Shown here: positions 1-39,965 of the stretch, one piece after another
How positions within the stretch are numbered: the stretch's first letter is position 1
Layout of the letters: the number at the start of each line of letters is the position of its first letter
IMG/VR virus record: IMGVR_UViG_3300029873_000387
Source: a virus
Lineage: Duplodnaviria; Heunggongvirae; Uroviricota; Caudoviricetes
Length of the DNA stretch: 45,640 nucleotides
Direction: 5' to 3' (one strand)
The notes under the pieces: generated by a model
What the model saw: only the letters and a program-made list of their open reading frames with translations
Told to the model about the DNA's origin: nothing
Databases searched by the model: none
Translations under genes and position numbers: made by a program

Positions 1-432
1 AAGGACGATGCCTTGCTTGGCGAGCGTCTGGACGACCTGGTCGAGTGGTATCTCGGCGCACGGCTGCAGAACTTCGAGAATGTAACTATCGGCGCTGCGG
101 AAGGCAGCTCTGCCAAAATCGACAGCACCATGTATCTTATCGATGTCCGTGGTAAGACATACTGCGGCGTTCATGGCGACTTTGATGGCTCGGCCAGTAA
201 AGTGCAGGCGCTGCAGACAATGGCGAGAACTCCGCTGTATGCAGTGCTGTCCGGACACTTGCATCATAACAAGATTGATGAAGTGCAGGGCGTCAAAACT
301 ATCATGGCGGGAAGCTTTCTCGGCATGGACGATTACTGTGTACAGAAACGAATCTACGGGAAAGCGGAGCAGATGGTATGTGTCTGTGACGCAGACGGAG
401 TCCGCTGCTCTTACAGTGTTCCTCTTCAATAA
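1..432 (+). CDS. Calcineurin-like metallophosphoesterase, C-terminal part (5' partial)
   Basis: Frame open from base 1; motifs GVHGD and SGHLHH match metallophosphoesterase motifs IV/V. Confidence 0.7.
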   Translation, partial: KDDALLGERLDDLVEWYLGARLQNFENVTIGAAEGSSAKIDSTMYLIDVRGKTYCGVHGDFDGSASKVQALQTMARTPLYAVLSGHLHHNKIDEVQGVKTIMAGSFLGMDDYCVQKRIYGKAEQMVCVCDADGVRCSYSVPLQ

Positions 433-444
433 TAAACAAACCGT

Positions 445-481
445 GAGGGCTGTCCGTGATGGGCAGCCCTCTTCTGATTTT
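445..481 (+). terminator. Hairpin / probable intrinsic terminator after the phosphoesterase
   Basis: GAGGGCTGTCC-GTGAT-GGGCAGCCCTC stem (one G-U pair) followed by TTCTGATTTT. Confidence 0.55.
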
Positions 482-498
482 ATCGGGGCTTCGGCATA

Positions 499-745
499 CC
501 TACTCCGTTTCTGGAGAAGGAACGCAGTACGCCTATTACAAGGCGGGTAACTCAAAGGTGAAGAACAAGAGTGGCTCCGCTGCCAACTGGTGGATGCGTT
601 CTCCTTGGCCTGGCAACAGCATTAGCTCCTGCTATGTTGGCAGTACCGGCAACGCCATTTATGGCTACGCCGCAACCAGTATTGGCGTCGCTTTCGGCTT
701 CTGCGTCTAACCTCTCCACCCCGCCGCATTCGCTTTGACGCAGAA
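499..745 (+). repeat. Orphan copy of the 3' end of the DGR target gene with a second variable region (VR2, 571-703); direct repeat of 37479-37725
   Basis: 499-580 differs from 37479-37560 at only 3 positions, all synonymous. 683-730 is identical to 37663-37710 and 733-745 to 37713-37725. The middle aligns gap-free to TR and encodes ...GSAANWWMRSPWPGNSISSCYVGSTGNAIYGYAATSIGVAFGFCV*. Confidence 0.95.
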
Positions 746-758
746 CATTTCTTTATAT

Positions 759-834
759 GGGGTCGTGGTCAAGCGGCTAAGACACCGCCCTTTCACGGCG
801 GTAACGATGGGTTCGATTCCCTCCGACCTCACCA
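759..834 (+). tRNA. tRNA-Glu (TTC)
   Basis: Acceptor GGGGTCG/CGACCTC, anticodon arm CCGCC-CTTTCAC-GGCGG, T-loop TTCGATT, encoded CCA; T-stem slightly irregular. Confidence 0.9.
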
Positions 835-840
835 TACTTT

Positions 841-926
841 GGGAGAGTGGTAGAGCGGTCAATTACAGCAGACTGTAAATCTGCCGCCTTCAGGCTGCGT
901 TGGTTCAAATCCAACCTCTCCCACCA
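841..926 (+). tRNA. tRNA-Tyr (GTA)
   Basis: Acceptor GGGAGAG/CTCTCCC, anticodon arm GCAGA-CTGTAAA-TCTGC, long variable arm, TTCAAAT T-loop, encoded CCA. Confidence 0.93.
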
Positions 927-929
927 TAT

Positions 930-1005
930 TGCGGGCAGGACAAGCGGTTAAGTCGCAGGTCTCATAAACCTTGAGGAATCGGTTCAACTCCGGTGCCCGC
1001 AACCA
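930..1005 (+). tRNA. tRNA with CAT anticodon (Met or Ile2; subtype unresolved)
   Basis: Acceptor TGCGGGC/GCCCGCA, anticodon loop CTCATAA, T-arm ATCGG-TTCAACT-CCGGT, encoded CCA; lacks the three G-C anticodon-stem pairs of initiator tRNA. Confidence 0.85.
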
Positions 1006-1037: not shown

Positions 1038-2069
1038 ATGCCCCGAAAAACAAAGCAAAACGAAATCACAAGCCCTGAGCTTTTGAGTCAGGTCAACCCG
1101 GAAAACATTCGTTTGAAGCAGGATTTCATTGCTTACCTGCAGTCTGTGCAGCGCAGTCCGAAGACGATTGCGGGCTACGCAAATGACCTTGATATTTTCT
1201 GGGTCTGGAATTTGCAGAACAACGGGAATAAGTTTTTCCCGAAAATCTCCAAGCGTGATTATGCCGCATACCAGCATTGGCTCATCAATGAGAACGGTAA
1301 TTCACCCGCTCGTGTGCGGCGCTTGAAGTCTGCGATTTCTTCGCTCTCCAATTATGTGGAGAACATCTTGGATGATGAAGACGAGTTTAAGGGGTTCCGT
1401 TCTACTGTAAGGAAGATAGAGAATCCCGCTATGCAGCAGGTGCGAAAGAAAACTGTCTGGAGTGACGAGGCTCTGGACAAGCTCCTTGATGACCTGCTTG
1501 CTTCCGGGCAAAACAAAAAGGCCTGTGCTGTAGCTCTTGCTATGTGCAGTGGGCGACGCAAGGCGGAGCTTTGCCGATTCCGGGTTGACGATTTCAAAGA
1601 CGACAACCTTGTATGTGGTGGTGCATTGTACAAGACCAGCGAGCCGATTCAGACAAAGGGGTTCGGTTTGGGCAAATACATTTACTGCTACACGCTGGCA
1701 AAAAAGTTCAAACCGTATTTTGACGCATGGATGCGTGAACGGGCAGAGCTCGGCATTGAAAGCGAATGGCTGTTTCCTGCCGGAACGACCAGCGAACAAA
1801 TGAGTGAGACAACGCTCAACAGCTGGGCAAACACCTTTAGCAGGATGACCGGTGAAGATTTTTACTGGCACAGTCTGCGGCATTACTTCACGACGCATCT
1901 TTCCAAGCTTGGTTTGCCGGACAATATCATTCAAGACATCGTCGGGTGGGAGTCTGCCGACATGGTGCGCGTTTATAAAGACCTGAGCGCAGAGGAACAG
2001 ATTTCGCAGTACTTTGACGAGAATGGTGATATTCGGTCTGACGCACAGAAATCACTGTCAGACCTGTAA
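1038..2069 (+). CDS. Tyrosine recombinase (integrase/XerC-D family)
   Basis: N-terminal SAM-like region (SPKTIAGYANDL...SPARVRRLKSAISSL) and catalytic R (SGRRKAEL), HSLRH, W (VGWES), Y (VRVY); RBS GAGGTGG before ATG 1038. Confidence 0.9.
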   Translation: MPRKTKQNEITSPELLSQVNPENIRLKQDFIAYLQSVQRSPKTIAGYANDLDIFWVWNLQNNGNKFFPKISKRDYAAYQHWLINENGNSPARVRRLKSAISSLSNYVENILDDEDEFKGFRSTVRKIENPAMQQVRKKTVWSDEALDKLLDDLLASGQNKKACAVALAMCSGRRKAELCRFRVDDFKDDNLVCGGALYKTSEPIQTKGFGLGKYIYCYTLAKKFKPYFDAWMRERAELGIESEWLFPAGTTSEQMSETTLNSWANTFSRMTGEDFYWHSLRHYFTTHLSKLGLPDNIIQDIVGWESADMVRVYKDLSAEEQISQYFDENGDIRSDAQKSLSDL

Positions 2070-19200: not shown

Positions 19201-22200
19201 GATATGCAGCATCTTATGACAAGCTGAAAAACGGCGACATTATGACCACAGATACGGATTTGTCCAACAATATGTGGCAGATGTTCCGTGTCAATGACAG
19301 AGATGTGACACCTGAGTTTGTTGGAAGCTCAGGAGACAATAAGAGCCGGTATCTGTCTGAACAGATTATGAAGGCTCTGGGCGTAACCGATATTGGCAAG
19401 GAACTGGAGAAGTACACAAACGAGTACGGCTATTACCAGTGGGGTGACTTCTGGGATGATTACGCAGACCAGGTCTCTCACAATATCGGAAAGATTGCGG
19501 CCTCTATCGACTATACGGAAGTTGGCTTCGAGTCCCTCTCTGATTTTGAAGCCGCTGTCGAAAAGACAAAGAACGCTGCTGTTCGTTATGGTGAGGCACG
19601 AGATGGGCTTGAAAAGGCCAATCAAGATGTTGCCGACCAGCTGAAGCTTGTTGCACAGAACAATGCCGCTTATGACGATTTAAGCACAGAAGCACAAAAT
19701 ATTGTTTCCAATTTCATTGACCGCTTTGGCGTTGATGATGTCACAAAGAAAAACTTCTGGGGGAAGATTGTTCCCGATGAAGATGCCATTACCGATATTA
19801 AGGTTCAGATAAACGACTTCATCGATAAGCTGACACCGGAAGTGCAGAATGCAATGTCCGGCCTGTTTGACCTGAAGGGGTTGTTTGATGCCGGTGACAT
19901 CAATGTTGATGAATTCCAGGAAACTGTCAATGCGATTATCAGCGACCTTGAAGCAGCTGGGTTTGACGATGATACCATCAAATACCTCAAGCTCTCATTG
20001 GAGACAGATACTGTTGAGCGGCAGCTTGCTGCTGTCAAAGAAGCCATTGGCGGCGTTGGCGGCAAGTATGATGCGCTGTTAGGCAAGATGTCTGCGCAGG
20101 AGCTGGAAATTGCTTATAACATTATTTCCGAAGAAGGCTCAATGACCTTCGAGGAATTGCAAGAGAAAATCGAATGGCTGAAATATGCCAACGCCGATAT
20201 GGTGAACACTCTCGATTTCTCCGACATGATATCCGGTCTGGATAGTGCGAAGGATGGCCTTGACAGTATTATCTCTGCAATGGACAGGCTGAACTCCGGT
20301 ACTGCCATGACAAAGCAGCAGCTTGCCAACCTCGCCTTGCAGTATCCCAAGCTTCTGGAGCAGGCAGACCTGTTTGTTGACGGGTCTATCGATGGTCAGA
20401 GACAGCTGCTGAACAGCGTTCTTGAGATGAACGAGGCAGAGTATGATGCCCAGCTGGATACCAAGATTGCTGAACTGAAAGCAACCGAACAGGTCATCAA
20501 TGACCAGCTTGCTCTTGAAACCGAAAAGGCTAACATTATTGCCGACATAAAGAACCTGAGTGTCAACGGACAGGTTCAGCAGGAGGAAGCTCTTCTTCAA
20601 AAGATGAATGAGCTCAATGACTTGCAGGGCAGAAACTATGTGGCCGAGAAAAATGGCGAGCTGACTGTAAACGAAGAAGCACTGAACAAAAAGCTGGGTG
20701 CAGAAGTTGAATATGGTCAGCAGGCGACGGAGAACATCTGGCAGCCGTATGCCAATACCATTAAGAGCGCACATACACAAGGCTTCTCCAAGTCACTTGA
20801 AGCGACCAACAACTACGGCAACAGCTTGTTTGCCAAGATTCGCAATATTGCTTCCAGCGTCTGGGGTGCGCTGAGTCAGGCTGTCAAGGACGCTACGACA
20901 GGTAACTGGCAGGGTATCTCTCACTATTTCCAGTCAGCAGTGTCTGGTGCGGTAGGTGGCACTTCAATTGACGCCGGAGATGTCACCGTCACTTTCGACG
21001 GTGCAAATACCTATGTCGGCACAGATACGCTGGACGACTGGGTTTCAAAGCAGGAGCAGGCATCTGCACAGCGTATTGCTGCGCTGGAAGATTTCAAACA
21101 GCGAACGGTCAACGCCTACAAAAATCTTGAGGCGTTGCGCGGGCTTGACCTGACAAGCATCTATGGTTCTGCCGGTAGTTCTTATGGCAGCAGAAGCGAC
21201 AGCAGCGGAAATAGCTCAGACGGTGACAGCGATACAAAAGACAAAATCAAAACTGTTGAAGAGTATATCGCTGACATTGATGCCTATTACGAAGCAGAGA
21301 AGCGGCTGCAGGCTGCACAGGAACGGGCAAACTCTCTGGCGAAAAAGCTGAAGTATGCGGAAGACCCGGCTGAAAAGATTAAGCTGTCCAGTGATTTGAT
21401 TGACGCTTATAAAGAAGAGATGGCTGCCGAGAGGGATTTGATGGAGCTGAAAAAGAGCACCATCGCATCCAATGTCGGTGCCCTTCGCGCTCTTGGGTTT
21501 GAGGTCGAGTATAACAGCGAAACAAACGAGCTGTACATTAAGAACCTTGAGCACTTGAATGAGCTTACGGCATCGTCCGCCGGAGAGTACGACACACTGC
21601 AGGAAGCGACAAACGCCCTTCGCAAGGAAACGGAAGACCTGATAGATGTGACAGAGCAGCTTAACGATGACAACATCGATGCTGCAAGCTCCATCGAGGA
21701 CTTAGGTTATCAGGTTCAGGAGACGAAGAACAATATCATCGACTACATCGAGGAAGTCTATAAGAAGCAGATAGATGCCTATCAAAAGATTATAGACCTG
21801 AGAAAAGAGATGATTGAGTCCGCTAAGGACGAGTTCGACTATGAAGCCGATATTGCCGACAAGGTCAAGGAGATAGCTGACCTGCAAGCCAGAATCGACC
21901 AGCTTGCTCTGGATGACAGCAGAAGCGCACAGGCGGAGCGAAACACCCTGATACAGGAGCTGGAAGAAAAGCAGAAAGACCTCGCGGACACACAGAGAGA
22001 CCATTCCGTTGAAGCGCAGACTGACGCTCTGGACAAGATGGGCGAAGACTATGAAGCTGATAAGGAAGCGGAACTGGAACTGCTTAGGAGTACGGTCAAT
22101 TCTTCCGAAGAGCTCTGGACGGCATTTTACCAGACGCTTCTCGGTCAGAGCGTATCTGTCGGCGCATCTATCGATGCGGAGATTTCTTCTGCATGGATAC

Positions 22201-33244: not shown

Positions 33245-34711
33245 ATGGCTACAACTACTTTCAATACTCGTATTTCCCTGAAGTATGATACCTATGCCAA
33301 CTGGGTTGATAGAGACCCCGTGTTGCTGGCCGGTGAGCTTGCGGTTGTCGTCGTACCTGCTGCTACCGGCGCTGTGGCAAAGGAGCCCGCTATCCTGTTC
33401 AAGGCTGGCGACGGTTCTTCTAAGTTCAGCCAGCTGCAGTTTTCTGCAGGTCTGGCCGCCGATGTGTACGACTGGGCAAAGGCTGAGAATAAGCCGACCT
33501 ATTCCGCCAATGAGATTACCGGCCTGTCCGACTACATCTCCGGCGAGATTCAGGACACTGACACCCAGTACAAGCTGGAAGTCGATGCGGACAATGCCCG
33601 CAAATTCCACCTGTATTCTCAGGCAAAAGGCAGCACTACATGGTCTCTGGCGAGCACTATCACCATCCCCGACGAGACTGTTTACACACTGGTTGAGGGT
33701 GGCGCCAACGGCACTGTTAAGTTCAACGGTACTGATGTGAAGGTGCATGGTCTGGGTTCTGCCGCCTACAAGGACGAGGGCGCCTTTGATGCCGCTGGTG
33801 CTGCCACCACCGCATTGGACAATGCCAAAACCTATGCTGACGGCAAGGACGCCGCTATTGCTGCGGCCAAGAAAGCCGGTACGGACGCTCAGGCGGATGT
33901 GGATGCACTGGAGGAATTGGTCGGCACGCTGCCCGACGGTGCAACTGCTACTACCGTTGTGGGCTATGTGGATGAGAAGGTCGGTGCTATTCCTGCACAG
34001 ACCGACTACACCGTGACTGTGACTGCTTCCACGCCCGAAGGCGTCGCAAAGCGTTACAACATCAAGCAGGCTGCAACCAGTCTGGATGTAAACATCGATA
34101 TTCCGAAGGATATGGTTGTGAAGTCCGGCACTGTGGAGACCAAGGCGGCGGCTGGCGATTGGGGCGCAGCGGGTACTTACCTGCATCTGGTTCTTGCTAA
34201 CGCTACCGAGGATGATATCTACATCAATGTTGACAGCCTGATTGAGTATGTCACTTCTGGTTCCAAAGTGGGCGACCAGATTGTGATTGATGTCAGTGCT
34301 GACCATAAGGTGACTGCCACGCTGACGGAGGGTTCCGTGACTCTGGCACAGCTCCACGCCGATGTGCAGACTGCCATTGGCAAGGCGCACTCCCACACGA
34401 ATAAGGTCGAGCTGGACAAAATTGCCACCGGCGACAAGGCAAAGTGGGATGGTGCTGTTGAGAAGCAGCATGAGCATTCCAATAAGACCATCCTCGACGG
34501 CATTTCTCAGGCCAAGGTCAATGCGTGGGACGGTGCTGTTGATAAGCAGCATGAGCACGAGAACAAGACCGTTCTCGATGGTATCACCGCTGCAAAGATT
34601 TCTGACTGGGACAGCAAGGCCGCTGGTGACCATGAGCATGACATTACCGAGCTGAAGCAGGCTTCTGGTTATATCATCTTCAACTGCGGCAGCGCTACCT
34701 TGAACATCTGA
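33245..34711 (+). CDS. Tail fibre segment with Mtd_N-like N-terminus and HxH repeats
   Basis: TRISLKYDTYANW...PVLLAGE...FKAGDG; C-terminal HSH/HEH/HEH/HEH repeats. Confidence 0.72.
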   Translation: MATTTFNTRISLKYDTYANWVDRDPVLLAGELAVVVVPAATGAVAKEPAILFKAGDGSSKFSQLQFSAGLAADVYDWAKAENKPTYSANEITGLSDYISGEIQDTDTQYKLEVDADNARKFHLYSQAKGSTTWSLASTITIPDETVYTLVEGGANGTVKFNGTDVKVHGLGSAAYKDEGAFDAAGAATTALDNAKTYADGKDAAIAAAKKAGTDAQADVDALEELVGTLPDGATATTVVGYVDEKVGAIPAQTDYTVTVTASTPEGVAKRYNIKQAATSLDVNIDIPKDMVVKSGTVETKAAAGDWGAAGTYLHLVLANATEDDIYINVDSLIEYVTSGSKVGDQIVIDVSADHKVTATLTEGSVTLAQLHADVQTAIGKAHSHTNKVELDKIATGDKAKWDGAVEKQHEHSNKTILDGISQAKVNAWDGAVDKQHEHENKTVLDGITAAKISDWDSKAAGDHEHDITELKQASGYIIFNCGSATLNI

Positions 34712-35680: not shown

Positions 35681-37690
35681 ATGCCTATTATTTCCAACTT
35701 TCCAGGTGGAACTGGTTCTGGCGGCGGCCTGACACTTGGCGCAGTTTCCGACATCAATGTGCTTGTCGCTTCCGGTAAAACATATGTGAAGTGGACTGAC
35801 CCCTCTGACATTGTGGTGTCAGGTGCTGCACTTGCGTCATGGGGTGGCACCCAGCTTGTCCGCAAGGCCGGTTCTGCTCCCAGAAGCCGCCGGGACGGTA
35901 CGGTCGTGCTGGACAGCAAAACGCGAGACGCTTATAAGACTTCGTATTTCTGCGACAGTGGTCTTTCCAACGGCGTGACCTATTACTATAAGTTTTTCCC
36001 TTACACCACAGCTGGTGCCTATACGGACAGTGAAGAGGATGTATTCAACGCAACACCTACCGTTCAGGTCACAGGTATTTCAAACTGGAATGTAACAAGT
36101 ATGACAGCATCCCAAGAGGCCGGTAACGGGAAGATGACCGTTAAGTGGGCCGACCCTGCGGCGAGTATCACATCCGACGGCGTTACGCTGGCTACCTGGG
36201 CAAGCACCACTATCGTGGTGAAGGCTGGCGGTTATGCAACAGGCAAGGATGACGCTGACGCAGCATATACCCTGAAGGTCACTACTCGCAATCAGTATGC
36301 TTCCACGCCTTTGTCTATTACAGGACTGACAAACGGAACGACATACTACATTAGTTTCTACCCCGAGACTACAGACGGCGGCATCAACACATCCACCTCT
36401 CAGCGAACTACTGGTAAGGCAAACCGTATTACCATTTCCGCAATCCCTTCACAAAGCGGTACATTGACCTATAACGGTAACAGCCAGTCTCCCACTTGGA
36501 GCAACTACAGTGCTACCAAGACCACCATTGGAGGCACCACATCAGGAACAAATGCTAATAATTACAACGCTACATTTACTCCGACTGCGGATTATCGTTG
36601 GTCAGATGGGAGCACCACGGCAAAAACAGTTGTGTGGTCAATCGGCAAGGCTGCTGGCTCTTTAAGCATTAGCCCTACCTCCATTACGCTGAATGCCTCC
36701 AACAGGTCAAAAACGATTACCGTTACGCGGGCTGGTAACGGTGTTGTCAGTGCGAGTTCCAACAATACGGGTGTGGCAAAGGTGACCGTTTCCGGCACGA
36801 CTGTTACAGTTTCCAGCGTGAATGACACAACTGGCAATGCGACTATTACCATCAGTGTTGCGGCTGGCACAAACCATACCGCACCTGCCAGCAAGACCTG
36901 CGCCGTGACCGCATCCTTCAAGCCTACGGCTTCCACTGCGGCTACTTCTGGCGTGAATTATACATCCGGTCTTTCCGGCGTAGCAGCATCGGATGTAACG
37001 CTGTTTGCTGAGGCAATCTCTAACAACAGTAGCATCACAAACGCGACATCCACGGTGTACATTGATTTCGGCAGCGTTCATCGTAAGGTCAGTGTTGGCG
37101 ACCAGGTGACGCTCGCCCTGAATGGTACGAATTACACCTTTGATGTAATTGGCTTTAACCATGATACGCTGACAACATCTACTGCGTATGGGACTACCAC
37201 CAAGACCGGCAAGGCTGGTATCACATTCCAGATGCATGACCTGTTTGCAACGACCTATGTGATGAACAGTTCTAATACAAACAGCGGCGGCTGGAAGAGT
37301 AGCGCTATGCGCACCTCGACGATGGCGACTATGAAGGGGTATCTGCCCGCAGCATGGCAGACAGCCATCAAGCCGGTCAATAAGGCTTCCGGTACTGGCG
37401 GCGGTTCTTCAAGCGGTACGGAAACAGTCTCCGACAGCTGCTTCCTGCTGGCAGAAATCGAAATCTTCGGTTCCACCTCCTATTCCGTTTCTGGAGAAGG
37501 AACGCAGTACGCATATTACAAGGCAGGTAACTCAAAGGTGAAGAACAAGAGTGGCTCCGCTGGCGGCTGGTGGGAGCGTTCTCCTCGTTCTGGCAGCAGC
37601 AATGGTTTCTGTAGTGTCGTCAGCAACGGCGGCGCCTACGCTGGCTACGCCAACATCAGTTATGGCGTCGCTTTCGGCTTCTGCGTCTAA
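35681..37690 (+). CDS. DGR target: receptor-binding/tail fibre protein with two FN3-like repeats, Ig-like domains and a C-terminal C-type-lectin-fold (DUF6273-like) domain
   Basis: RBS AAAGGAGG; repeated VKWxDP...GLxNGxTYY units; NTNSGGW...FLLAEIEIFG...YAYY...WWERSP...GVAFGFCV; 3' end matches TR. Confidence 0.88.
   Translation: MPIISNFPGGTGSGGGLTLGAVSDINVLVASGKTYVKWTDPSDIVVSGAALASWGGTQLVRKAGSAPRSRRDGTVVLDSKTRDAYKTSYFCDSGLSNGVTYYYKFFPYTTAGAYTDSEEDVFNATPTVQVTGISNWNVTSMTASQEAGNGKMTVKWADPAASITSDGVTLATWASTTIVVKAGGYATGKDDADAAYTLKVTTRNQYASTPLSITGLTNGTTYYISFYPETTDGGINTSTSQRTTGKANRITISAIPSQSGTLTYNGNSQSPTWSNYSATKTTIGGTTSGTNANNYNATFTPTADYRWSDGSTTAKTVVWSIGKAAGSLSISPTSITLNASNRSKTITVTRAGNGVVSASSNNTGVAKVTVSGTTVTVSSVNDTTGNATITISVAAGTNHTAPASKTCAVTASFKPTASTAATSGVNYTSGLSGVAASDVTLFAEAISNNSSITNATSTVYIDFGSVHRKVSVGDQVTLALNGTNYTFDVIGFNHDTLTTSTAYGTTTKTGKAGITFQMHDLFATTYVMNSSNTNSGGWKSSAMRTSTMATMKGYLPAAWQTAIKPVNKASGTGGGSSSGTETVSDSCFLLAEIEIFGSTSYSVSGEGTQYAYYKAGNSKVKNKSGSAGGWWERSPRSGSSNGFCSVVSNGGAYAGYANISYGVAFGFCV
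37551..37683 (+). repeat. DGR variable region VR1
   Basis: Gap-free 133-bp alignment to TR 38399-38531 with 23 mismatches, all at TR adenines. Confidence 0.97.
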
Positions 37691-37743
37691 CCTCTCCACC
37701 CCGCCGCATTTACTTTGACGCAGAATGCCCAGTGAGCAAACAA

Positions 37744-37782
37744 GGGCAGCCCGCTCTCCCCGGTCAGGGGAGACGGCTGCCC
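37744..37782 (+). promoter_or_regulatory. GC-rich hairpin downstream of VR1 (candidate DGR target-recognition hairpin)
   Basis: GGGCAGCC...TCTCCCC-GGTCA-GGGGAGA...GGCTGCCC, 54 bp after the target stop; no T-tract. Confidence 0.65.
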
Positions 37783-37873
37783 GTATGCCGCATTGTGTAA
37801 GGGGTACACCCCTTGCGGTTAGAGGTGTGGGAATCCCATTCGCATAAGTAAAACGGAAGAAAAGGAGGAAAGA

Positions 37874-38341
37874 ATGTCCGTATATAAATCAAAGCGCAGT
37901 ACGAGCGCAATCCAGTATGTCGAGAACGCACGGCAACTACAGGTGTTTACCATCAAGAATTGCGTGAAGTTCCCCAAACGATATACCTATATTGTCGTGC
38001 AGAAAATTGCGAATCTTGTGGAAGACATTGACACCCATGTGCGTGTGGCAGAATCAATGATGCCGACCAATCTGCATGAAGCACAGCTAAAGCGTGATGA
38101 GCTCACTTACACTTTCGGCTTGCTCAACAGCTTAGATGATAAGCTTCAGCTGATGTATGACATCGTTTCGGACAACCCAAATTTCAAGACGGAGTTTAAG
38201 TGGTTGCCTAACGCCATGCTTGAATGGGGTCGGCTCATCCAGAAGGAGCGTGACCTTATTACGGGCGTCAAGAAAGCAGACCGGAAACGGTTCAAGGAAA
38301 AATTCAAGGAATACGAAGATAACAGTATTCCGGCAGATTAA
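37874..38341 (+). CDS. avd: DGR accessory variability determinant (Avd-like four-helix-bundle protein)
   Basis: 155 aa, basic, helical, MSVYKSKRS N-terminus and KFPKRYTY motif; located between VR and TR. Confidence 0.8.
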   Translation: MSVYKSKRSTSAIQYVENARQLQVFTIKNCVKFPKRYTYIVVQKIANLVEDIDTHVRVAESMMPTNLHEAQLKRDELTYTFGLLNSLDDKLQLMYDIVSDNPNFKTEFKWLPNAMLEWGRLIQKERDLITGVKKADRKRFKEKFKEYEDNSIPAD

Positions 38342-38398
38342 GTTTCTCTAAGGTCAAGTCTCGTCTTGTTGTGTTCTGTGGGCTTTTGGACTGCTGTG

Positions 38399-38531
38399 GT
38401 GGCTCCGCTAACAACTGGTGGGAGCGTTCTCCTAATTCTGGCAACAGCAATAATTTCTGTAATGTCAACAGCAACGGCAACGCCAACAATAACAACGCCA
38501 ACAACAGTAATGGCGTCGCTTTCGGATTCTG
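38399..38531 (+). ncRNA. DGR template repeat (TR)
   Basis: 17 AAC/AAT codons and 39 adenines; matches VR1 except at adenines; diverges from VR after TTCTG (IMH/IMH* boundary); lies between avd and RT. Confidence 0.95.
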
Positions 38532-38780
38532 TAGGTCTATAGGTCAATCAAAGTAACCCTCGTGGCGAAATTTGTACTTCTGCAGAAGGGAGACTTGTTC
38601 CTGTAGCATAGTGAAATATGCTCAAAACAGTGTGTCGATGATATGCACCGGATGACGCTTCTTGCATGGCCGATGAATACGGGAATAGTCGGTTTCATGG
38701 TGCGGACTACGCAGTTAGAACTCCCGCCTACAATAAGACTGTACGGCACACCCAATTTTCTTGTATATAAGGGATGATGT

Positions 38781-39965
38781 ATGAACAGTAAGGAAAGACA
38801 TGAAATCAGATATCAGCGCAGAGTGGCAGCTCGTCAGGCGAAAAGGATTGCCTACAGTGAAAGCTATGGACGCTATGAAGATGTATTCTCCTATGAGCAC
38901 CTTTATCAGGCGGGCAAGAACTGCTGCAAAGGGGTTATGTGGAAGAACAGTACACAAAGCTATATGAGCCGCATTACCACGAACACCGCCAGCACGCATG
39001 ACGCACTGTTGCGCAGAGAGTTCAGGAGCCGTGGCTTCCATGACTTTGACCTAATTGAGCGCGGAAAGCTACGGCATATTCGGAGCGTTCATATCTCCGA
39101 GCGCGTAGTACAGAGATGTCTTTGCGACAATATACTTGTCCCTGTGTTTTCTCACTCATTTGTTTTTGACAACGCCGCAAGTCTGAAAGGCAAAGGTGTT
39201 GACTTTGCTATGGACAGACTGGACAGGCACCTGCACAGATTCTATCGAAAGTTTGGCGTCGAAGGCGTAGAATCTGGCGGTGTTCTCACGGGCGATTTCT
39301 CCGATTTCTTTAACAGTGCGCCGCACTCTATTATCTATAGAGAAGCGGAGCGCAGGATACATGACGATGATGTGCGTCGTATTGCCTGCCAGTTCATGGA
39401 GGACTTCGGAGATGTTGGTTTTGGACTTGGCAGCCAGGTATCGCAGATAGATGCGCTTATGGTCGCAAGCCCGCTTGACCACTTCATAAAGGAACAGCTA
39501 CACATCAAATACTACGGAAGATATATGGATGACTTCTATCTGATACATGAGGACAAAGAATATCTGAAATACTGCATGGAGGAAATCAGAAAGAAGTGCA
39601 AGGAATACGGGTTTGTTTTGAACGAGAAGAAGACAAAGATAGCGCCGCTGCGCAAGGGAGTCAAATTCTTGAAAACGAAGTTCTTCCTGAATGAAACCGG
39701 CGCAGTCATTCGCAAGATGAACCGAAAGTCACCGGTTAAAATGCGGAAGAAACTCAGAATATTCCGAAGGTGGATAGATGAAGGAAGATTCACTATCACA
39801 GATGTAGAGACAGCCTATCAGAGCTGGCGCGGACATATGATTCGTGGAAACAGCACGCTTGTTTTGCGGAAGATGGATGCTTTCTACAACAGTTTATTCA
39901 AGAACAAGGAGGATTCAGGACATGGTAAAGTTTCTGAAGAACGGCAGCTTGCTCGCGCTTGTTGA
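38781..39965 (+). CDS. DGR reverse transcriptase
   Basis: RGKLRHI, ERVVQRCL, SLKGKG, GDFSDFF, GFGLGSQVSQ (SQ typical of DGR RTs), YGRYMDDF, LNEKKT. Confidence 0.95.
   Translation: MNSKERHEIRYQRRVAARQAKRIAYSESYGRYEDVFSYEHLYQAGKNCCKGVMWKNSTQSYMSRITTNTASTHDALLRREFRSRGFHDFDLIERGKLRHIRSVHISERVVQRCLCDNILVPVFSHSFVFDNAASLKGKGVDFAMDRLDRHLHRFYRKFGVEGVESGGVLTGDFSDFFNSAPHSIIYREAERRIHDDDVRRIACQFMEDFGDVGFGLGSQVSQIDALMVASPLDHFIKEQLHIKYYGRYMDDFYLIHEDKEYLKYCMEEIRKKCKEYGFVLNEKKTKIAPLRKGVKFLKTKFFLNETGAVIRKMNRKSPVKMRKKLRIFRRWIDEGRFTITDVETAYQSWRGHMIRGNSTLVLRKMDAFYNSLFKNKEDSGHGKVSEERQLARAC

Follow-up and report, generated by a model that had tools for sequence, protein, structure and literature searches.

The gut phage DNA analysed here (the window, a stretch of 45,640 nucleotides) contains a DGR and, far from it, a second, start-less copy of the 3' end of the DGR target gene, which we will call the cassette. 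We consider it probable, although with considerable room for doubt, that this tip duplicate is a snapshot of an earlier tip allele, refreshed by recombination with the target gene and likely copied back into it on occasion. In current models a DGR works one way, the target being overwritten from the template with loss of its previous allele; here, the gene is accompanied by a copy of its tip that changes more slowly and exchanges DNA with it. The evidence consists throughout of short-read assemblies and Logan contigs.

Anatomy of the DGR and the cassette

The main locus (35681-39965) can be regarded as a canonical DGR, given its reverse transcriptase (RT) motifs, a template repeat (TR) and variable region (VR1) that differ at adenines only, a stem-loop and a structured RNA. 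Judging from the location of the target gene at the end of the tail module, its product is likely a tail-fibre or receptor-binding protein. The DUF6273 domain, described as C-type-lectin-like in the available text of PMC10743442, is C-terminal in the target (residues 551-688 of 694); the gene therefore falls outside the tentaclin definition of that text, which calls for an N-terminal C-type-lectin domain. The features of the window are as follows.

1..432, +, metallophosphoesterase gene (3' end), next to the cassette on its upstream side (Pfam Metallophos_2, E 1.9e-4, under the curated cut-off)
445..471, +, intrinsic-terminator-like hairpin, which holds the sole in-frame GTG/ATG (456/459) of the cassette frame
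482..498, +, eroded 5' edge of the duplication (from alignment with the target and 10 other cassettes; indels vary among relatives)
499..582, +, cassette 5' arm, a copy of 37479-37562, mostly outside the TR (3 differences, at 503, 533 and 545, all synonymous)
583..682, +, variable region of the cassette, carrying the old allele 'D' (differs from the TR at 19 adenine and 10 non-adenine sites)
683..745, +, cassette 3' arm: target-type VR 3' end, TAA stop and 35 untranslated bases (61/63 identical to the target)
759..1002, +, tRNA-Glu (759-834), tRNA-Tyr (841-926) and a third tRNA (930-1002), directly 3' of the cassette
1038..2069, +, tyrosine recombinase gene (Pfam Phage_integrase, E 1e-16)
35681..37690, +, DGR target gene, 669 aa, C-terminal DUF6273 (E 7.7e-14), with Mtd_N genes upstream
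37551..37683, +, VR1 (22 A-site and no other differences from the TR in the 100-nt core)
37744..37782, +, GC-rich stem-loop after the target gene, missing after the cassette (DNA fold)
37874..38341, +, 155-aa gene in the avd position (labelled by position and size; no Pfam match, unnamed PHROG only)
38399..38531, +, TR, AAC/AAT-rich (99-100% identical in most close relatives)
38539..38771, +, structured RNA after the TR, in the spacer position (Rfam RT-2, RF03077, 133 bits)
38781..39965, +, DGR reverse transcriptase (GSQVSQ and YMDD motifs in the translation; Pfam RVT_1; best phage matches annotated reverse transcriptase)

Aligned within the window, 499-745 and 37479-37725 form an ungapped direct repeat with an offset of 36,980 and 38 differences in 247 nt, three of them in the 5' arm, two in the 3' arm and the remainder in the variable core. 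The cassette comprises the final ~70 codons of the target gene and 35 untranslated bases. Decayed homology reaches ~17 nt further 5', to ~482, and at the other end homology stops 18 nt short of where the target's stem-loop would start. The first-pass annotation had described this 247-bp repeat with its synonymous 5' arm differences and its 3' arm spanning the stop, a stop-free and indel-free cassette VR, and the terminator-like hairpin ahead of it (445-471). All of these were reproduced, both translations being as it gave them and the alignment gapless. Its view that the arms contain non-TR sequence, and that the cassette is a DNA-level copy of the target, also held: homology to the TR is limited to about 571-703, each arm lies partly outside it, and the adenines in the arms are unmutated. 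From this, it can be inferred that the cassette was copied from target DNA and not from TR cDNA. In the 100-nt core, the cassette allele of the window differs from the TR at 10 non-adenine positions, and the target VR at none.

A hairpin similar to that at 445-471 occupies the same position in sister phages. The third tRNA was detected by Rfam and missed by ARAGORN. The 9-mer GGGCAGCCC is common to the terminator before the cassette (445-471) and the stem-loop after the target (37744-37752), probably by chance, and a gene of the tail region holds two tandem 81-nt repeats, 72% alike (34444-34605). The tyrosine recombinase was considered as a dedicated switch for the cassette and rejected, since its gene is also present in relatives without a cassette and no sign of action on the cassette was seen.

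Distribution among related phages

Among named records, the terminase of the window was closest to those of SPbeta-like Bacillus phages (47%); near-complete relatives measured 116-126 kb. A scan of genome contigs for the RT gave two loci, one of them a fragment in a Clostridium sp. CAG:413 bin (98% over residues 179-394), which is a weak hint at the host. The anchor pattern of the cassette had no match in genome contigs. Pattern scans identified 34 loci in viral and 42 in metagenome data; adding two more loci and the two of the window itself made 80 copies. Classed by their flanks, 29 had cassette flanks on both sides, 29 had target flanks on both sides, 10 were target copies and 3 cassette copies without the 5' side, 8 were junction forms and 1 was unrelated.

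Relatives had been proposed as the place to look for the same cassette at the phosphoesterase-tRNA junction, and the 29 both-flank contigs have it there. As for integrase loci at >=98% identity (n=18), 13 contained a full cassette, two had the cassette at a contig edge, two were junction contigs and one began past the cassette; an empty site was found in none of the 18, with flank divergence of up to 8%. Among the 62 other, more distant integrase loci (80 in all), no cassette was present in any of the 38 covering the junction, nor was there one in G004, which has a DGR of the same family (RT 80% identical). Taken together, these observations point to a single insertion in the ancestor of the present phage species. 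Most members of the integrase group at ~95% identity have tRNA-Asn, -Phe and -Glu at the cassette site. At the phosphoesterase-tRNA junction of three loci (L056, L069 and L085), an ORF of ~140 aa, which we take to be endonuclease-like, stands in place of tRNA-Asn and part of tRNA-Phe, and the cassette site appears to be an insertion hotspot. One cassette was present in each of G007, G008 and G009; the sequence of G041 stops short of the cassette region.

A DGR-like RT was found in 23 of 28 related records. In G019, one of the relatives (integrase 82%, RT 34% identical), the 3' end of the target is duplicated as a headless copy of 167 bp (72862-73028, inverted relative to the target), which has no start and no stem-loop, ends 13 nt before the target's hairpin and contains a 6-nt in-frame insertion. 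This copy is independent of the window's cassette and belongs to a different DGR. The viral contig set held no relative of the G019 pattern, and no further headless copy was found among the 26 related records searched, many of them partial.

The first-pass annotation had called the cassette a second VR. That description is incomplete, since most longer relatives also carry a conventional remote DGR target gene, which in the window's phage group lies ~19 kb upstream of the cassette, on the opposite strand and outside the window. In L209, L210, L194, L212 and G042 (20599-20707) this gene is DUF6273-like, encodes ~220 aa, lies among tRNA genes and has a VR that matches the present TR at adenines; the VR of L194 has a frameshift, and the gene of L212 (G007) is of the sister-group type and fits the present TR poorly. 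Further observations concern the DGR itself. The TR in L172 (3620-3755; G006) is short of about ten adenines, those bases being common to VR1, for which VR-to-TR conversion, homing into the TR and an assembly chimera are candidate causes. In a distant relative (L107, 1-900) TR and RT follow the target gene directly, VR and avd being absent through VR/TR collapse or deletion, and a second reverse-transcriptase-like gene lies outside the DGR in G008 (L277, 14838-15995).

Existence of the copy

Repeats of this kind confuse assemblers, and at least nine junction contigs were encountered (five cassette-to-avd, three fibre-to-tRNA, and the 81-kb G005). The possibility that the copy itself is an assembly artefact, which would have removed the basis of the earlier proposal, can nevertheless be practically dismissed. 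There are 29 contigs with cassette-specific flanks on both sides and with distinct alleles, and the Logan contigs of run X2 contain two VR paths of 17.1x and 18.2x, together with a shared 5' arm of 40.6x and unique flanks of 21-25x; one of these paths is the window's cassette allele with 1 difference. Two VR paths of equal depth indicate that the cassette is not an artefact of the window's assembly. Run X1 lacked allele D, though one of its contigs was identical to 250-527, and run X3 had a single VR path (12.7x), its single-locus flanks being at 8-13x; both runs hint at mixed strains. As judged from these contigs, the artefact reading is refuted for the existence of the copy, a refutation from which identical-allele and junction contigs are exempt.

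The junction contigs are probably misassemblies. Together with G039, a circularly permuted segment of 37,258 bp with no exact end overlap, they were considered as crossover products and rejected: misjoins are expected of an assembler at a direct repeat, and a contig with G039's assembly prefix (L027) runs from VR1 on into avd. They were likewise set aside as evidence for the circle of ~37 kb that a single crossover would excise. In practice, DGR scanners would score the cassette as a second target, and assemblers make false 37-kb deletions and circles from it.

Exchange of DNA between the two loci

Both loci were present in 22 genomes or same-prefix assemblies, in 21 of them with both arms, and 16 with differing VRs were used for an arm test. 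The mean within-genome arm distance was 2.69 as compared with 5.5 after permutation (p 5e-5; 16 genomes or samples, relatedness among genomes ignored). Private arm haplotypes common to both loci occurred in 149350, 154290/163867, 164030, ERZ1026894 and the window, and in 149350, 154290/163867, 164030 and the window the shared-arm SNPs were too dense for the collapse of an assembly bubble. Because arm SNPs outside the TR match the target of the same genome, the loci appear to exchange DNA; retrohoming cannot write such arms. The movement of sequence between loci, suggested earlier as a check, is thus borne out by comparative evidence, in that arms co-vary within genomes.

In 149350/154290/163867 and in 164030, the SNPs common to both arms are part of a target haplotype that continues for 400-700 bp past the cassette homology, which indicates that copying ran from target to cassette. 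In L139, the cassette retains an arm of the 164030 type and the proximal part of the target is now of the common type. Where the direction of exchange is readable, it appears to be target-to-cassette. Derived bases common to the two VRs of a genome showed no significant excess (p 0.063). Pairs of an Erf-like annealing protein and an exonuclease recombine short homologies. In the close relative G008, an Erf-like protein (phrog_155, E 2e-32) is encoded beside an exonuclease; the gene was found in this relative and not in the window.

Allele turnover

Alleles were compared in 29 cassettes and 28 targets, one target with a register-shifting indel being left out. There were 17 distinct alleles in the cassettes versus 24 in the targets. 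At flank distances of 0.5-2%, 36 of 113 cassette pairs were identical versus 6 of 140 target pairs, all six of the latter being allele A. This allele was present in 11 of the 29 cassettes, with flanks up to 2.8% apart. By this allele sharing, the cassette evidently changes more slowly than the target.

Between 7 and 13 non-adenine changes were present in 4 of the 17 cassette alleles, and more than one in none of the 24 target alleles; the other 13 cassette alleles had 0-1 non-adenine change relative to the TR. Allele D of the window is one of the four old alleles and occurs in two more genomes, whose cassette flanks are 6 and 8% from the window's. An old TR from which allele D could have originated was not found among the 10 TRs compared. 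In L172/L037, the TR has lost several adenines; VR1 agrees with the altered TR and the cassette does not. Replacement of the cassette was seen as well: in one pair of cassettes the flanks agree over all 1,965 bases, yet the VRs differ at 16 positions. For nine cassette-only alleles of the adenine type, direct low-rate retrohoming could be another source. They fit the position profile of the target, a fit that does not tell selection from the enzyme context bias covered in the available text of PMC12875486. The cassette alleles of L016 and L025/L116 are identical in codons 9-34, with four A/G changes at the 5' end, and represent either a recombinant with allele A or a partial rewrite.

Possible copying from cassette to target

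One and the same allele was present at both loci in 5 of the 22 genomes. Allele A was found in 4 of the 28 targets, with flanks 0.6-1.4% apart, and the target of L155 carries another cassette allele. Target pairs with less than 0.5% flank distance shared an allele in 1 of 34 cases, so that simple descent of allele A at the target is unlikely; its presence in several targets might reflect back-conversion, strong selection for allele A, or assembly collapse. Four of the five same-allele genomes have identical 3' arms and could be collapsed repeats. In L128/L144, which have allele A at both loci, the 3' arms differ 40 bp beyond the last variable codon, and this would block collapse provided that the final k-mer exceeded 40, as we assume. 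An old cassette allele (7+ non-adenine changes) was found in none of the 24 distinct target alleles. Copying back from cassette to target is no more than hinted at. Of the gene-conversion donor proposed by the first-pass annotation, the silent, conserved copy exchanging DNA with its target stands, but donation fares worse, given the target-to-cassette direction and the targets devoid of old alleles. The word 'archive' fits the cassette better than 'donor'.

Reading frame and expression

In 22 of 29 cassettes, no ATG, GTG or TTG lies between the last in-frame stop and the arm, and in this respect the cassette differs from a VR in a translatable gene. Of 38 cassette-side copies, 37 preserve the frame from YSV through to the stop, whereas several indels lie in the 30 nt upstream. 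Absence or decay of the cassette in relatives, named earlier as grounds for dropping the proposal, was therefore not what we found: it is conserved in close relatives. Individual cases of decay do occur, namely W>R in L010, R>H in L147 and a 7-nt insertion in L009. Among the non-adenine changes of cassette-side alleles, 23 of 38 were synonymous against 17.5 expected (p 0.028, with 5 out-of-register positions dropped; 24/43, p 0.059, before dropping them), and for changes polymorphic within old cassette alleles the count was 11/17 (p 0.16). The synonymous lean is at most a weak hint of constraint, and conversion-based repair could explain the intact frame without selection.

It appears very unlikely that the cassette is an expressed mini-protein or a functional RNA, such as a decoy or second template. 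An ORF (456-710) is present in the window, and since no promoter-like site was found in the window on the + strand before the tRNAs, the cassette may be transcribed as a tRNA leader; RNA run X5 also gave short contigs over parts of the cassette, at depth 2-3. These contigs are too thin as proof of transcription, however, and their coverage may derive from DNA or target mRNA. Against a mini-protein, the start is missing in those 22 of 29 copies, and the cassette piece matches profile positions 100-163 of 172 only. A second template is at odds with the lack of an RT-2 RNA after the cassette, RT-2 occurring only at 38539-38771.

Model and alternatives

According to the model that we favour, the cassette would go back to a single insertion after the terminator of the phosphoesterase gene, at a site occupied in sister phages by tRNA-Asn/Phe/Glu. 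It would since have been refreshed by gene conversion from the target over arms of ~85 and ~63 bp, probably with the phage's Erf-like annealing protein and exonuclease. Having no stem-loop, it would likely be spared most mutagenic retrohoming; in BPP-1, stem-loop removal severely impairs retrohoming without abolishing it, according to the available text of PMC12875486. Target-to-cassette would be the main visible direction, and occasional back-conversions into the target would soon be erased by the DGR.

Whether such a duplicate is of use to the phage is a separate matter. It is possible, though doubtful, that the cassette is a selected one-slot memory, in which the DGR explores tips while the silent copy stores one that once worked and restores it by recombination. 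The phage could in this way be rescued when mutagenesis has done harm or when it returns to a former host receptor, and the independent copy of G019 would then make it a recurring design. If the cassette does copy back, DGR phages have memory, which bears on the survival of prophages under continual mutagenesis of their receptor-binding protein. Less likely than the favoured model, in our estimate, is a neutral leftover, that is, a chance duplication fixed with the lineage and homogenised by ectopic conversion, giving the target nothing of consequence. Its single copy in one clade, the lack of a cassette in G004 despite an RT 80% identical, and the restriction of headless copies to G019 among the 26 records searched when 23 of 28 have a DGR-like RT would all agree with this, as would the decay in L010, L147 and L009 and the p of 0.16 for changes polymorphic within old alleles. 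A leftover is harder to reconcile with 18 close loci of which none is empty despite up to 8% flank divergence, with 37 of 38 frames intact next to an indel-bearing upstream stretch, and with the synonymous lean of non-adenine changes (p 0.028, or 0.059 before positions were dropped). Were it neutral, the cassette would still provide a dated record of the alleles that the target once had, and a natural stem-loop-less control for retrohoming.

The residual retrohoming that BPP-1 shows after stem-loop deletion (PMC12875486, available text) suggests another explanation, namely that the cassette, with its VR 3' end but no stem-loop, is a weak direct DGR substrate rewritten at a low rate from TR cDNA, so that no VR need pass between loci. 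The 13 of 17 cassette alleles that differ from the TR almost solely at adenines are as expected from this. We regard it as unlikely, because it leaves unexplained the shared SNPs in arms outside the TR, a cassette older than the TR change of its genome (L172/L037) and identical alleles at both loci. Weak direct retrohoming may, however, operate alongside the conversion assumed in our preferred model.

Comparison with known systems

The main locus has the layout of the canonical BPP-1-type DGR of Bordetella, with adenine-only differences between VR1 and TR, to which the present phage adds a headless duplicate of the 3' end of the target whose arms lie outside the TR. Non-adjacent DGR targets of phages are known (Wu et al., PMC5758913), as are distal second VRs in four gut prophage species (PMC12629997) and the two-target nd4/nd12 DGRs (PMC10743442), each as given in the text available of these sources. 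Like such targets, the cassette gives its phage another VR no more than 50 kb from the RT. Unlike them, as far as those texts describe VRs that lie in genes and essentially span the TR, it has neither gene nor stem-loop, copies DNA beyond the TR and keeps its alleles across genomes. A remote target would have a stem-loop after its VR, while homology in the cassette ends 18 nt short of it and a tRNA gene comes next; as for changes of the A-to-N type only, the window's allele has 10 non-A changes and 13 of 17 alleles have 0-1. On these sequence features, the cassette is not a remote target gene.

A VR without identifiable ORF was noted in Pelodictyon phaeoclathratiforme BU-1 (DiGReF, PMC3521204). 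It resembles the cassette in lying outside a coding region, but in the available text it is a single remark on a bacterial genome, with no population data, arms or mechanism. For the terms tried, the available texts of PMC8144416, PMC4372165 and bioRxiv 10.64898/2026.05.08.723808 contained nothing on headless VR copies. None of the papers searched describes a conserved VR copy that lacks a start and evolves in concert with its target; cases may be listed in Table S1 of Wu et al. or in the Extended Data of Dahlman et al.

There is also a likeness to Borrelia vls and Neisseria pilS/pilE, which share with the cassette a truncated, untranslated copy, a variable core between conserved arms, and recombinational exchange. 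In contrast to vls and pilS, there is one cassette and not an array, and diversity comes from the DGR. Conversion in vls is described as one-way towards the expression site, whereas the visible flow here comes from the expressed gene and it is the cassette that is overwritten. To judge by the patterns above, the cassette resembles in its working a one-copy silent gene-conversion cassette coupled to a DGR, and departs from vls and pilS in having neither several donors nor a one-way flow.
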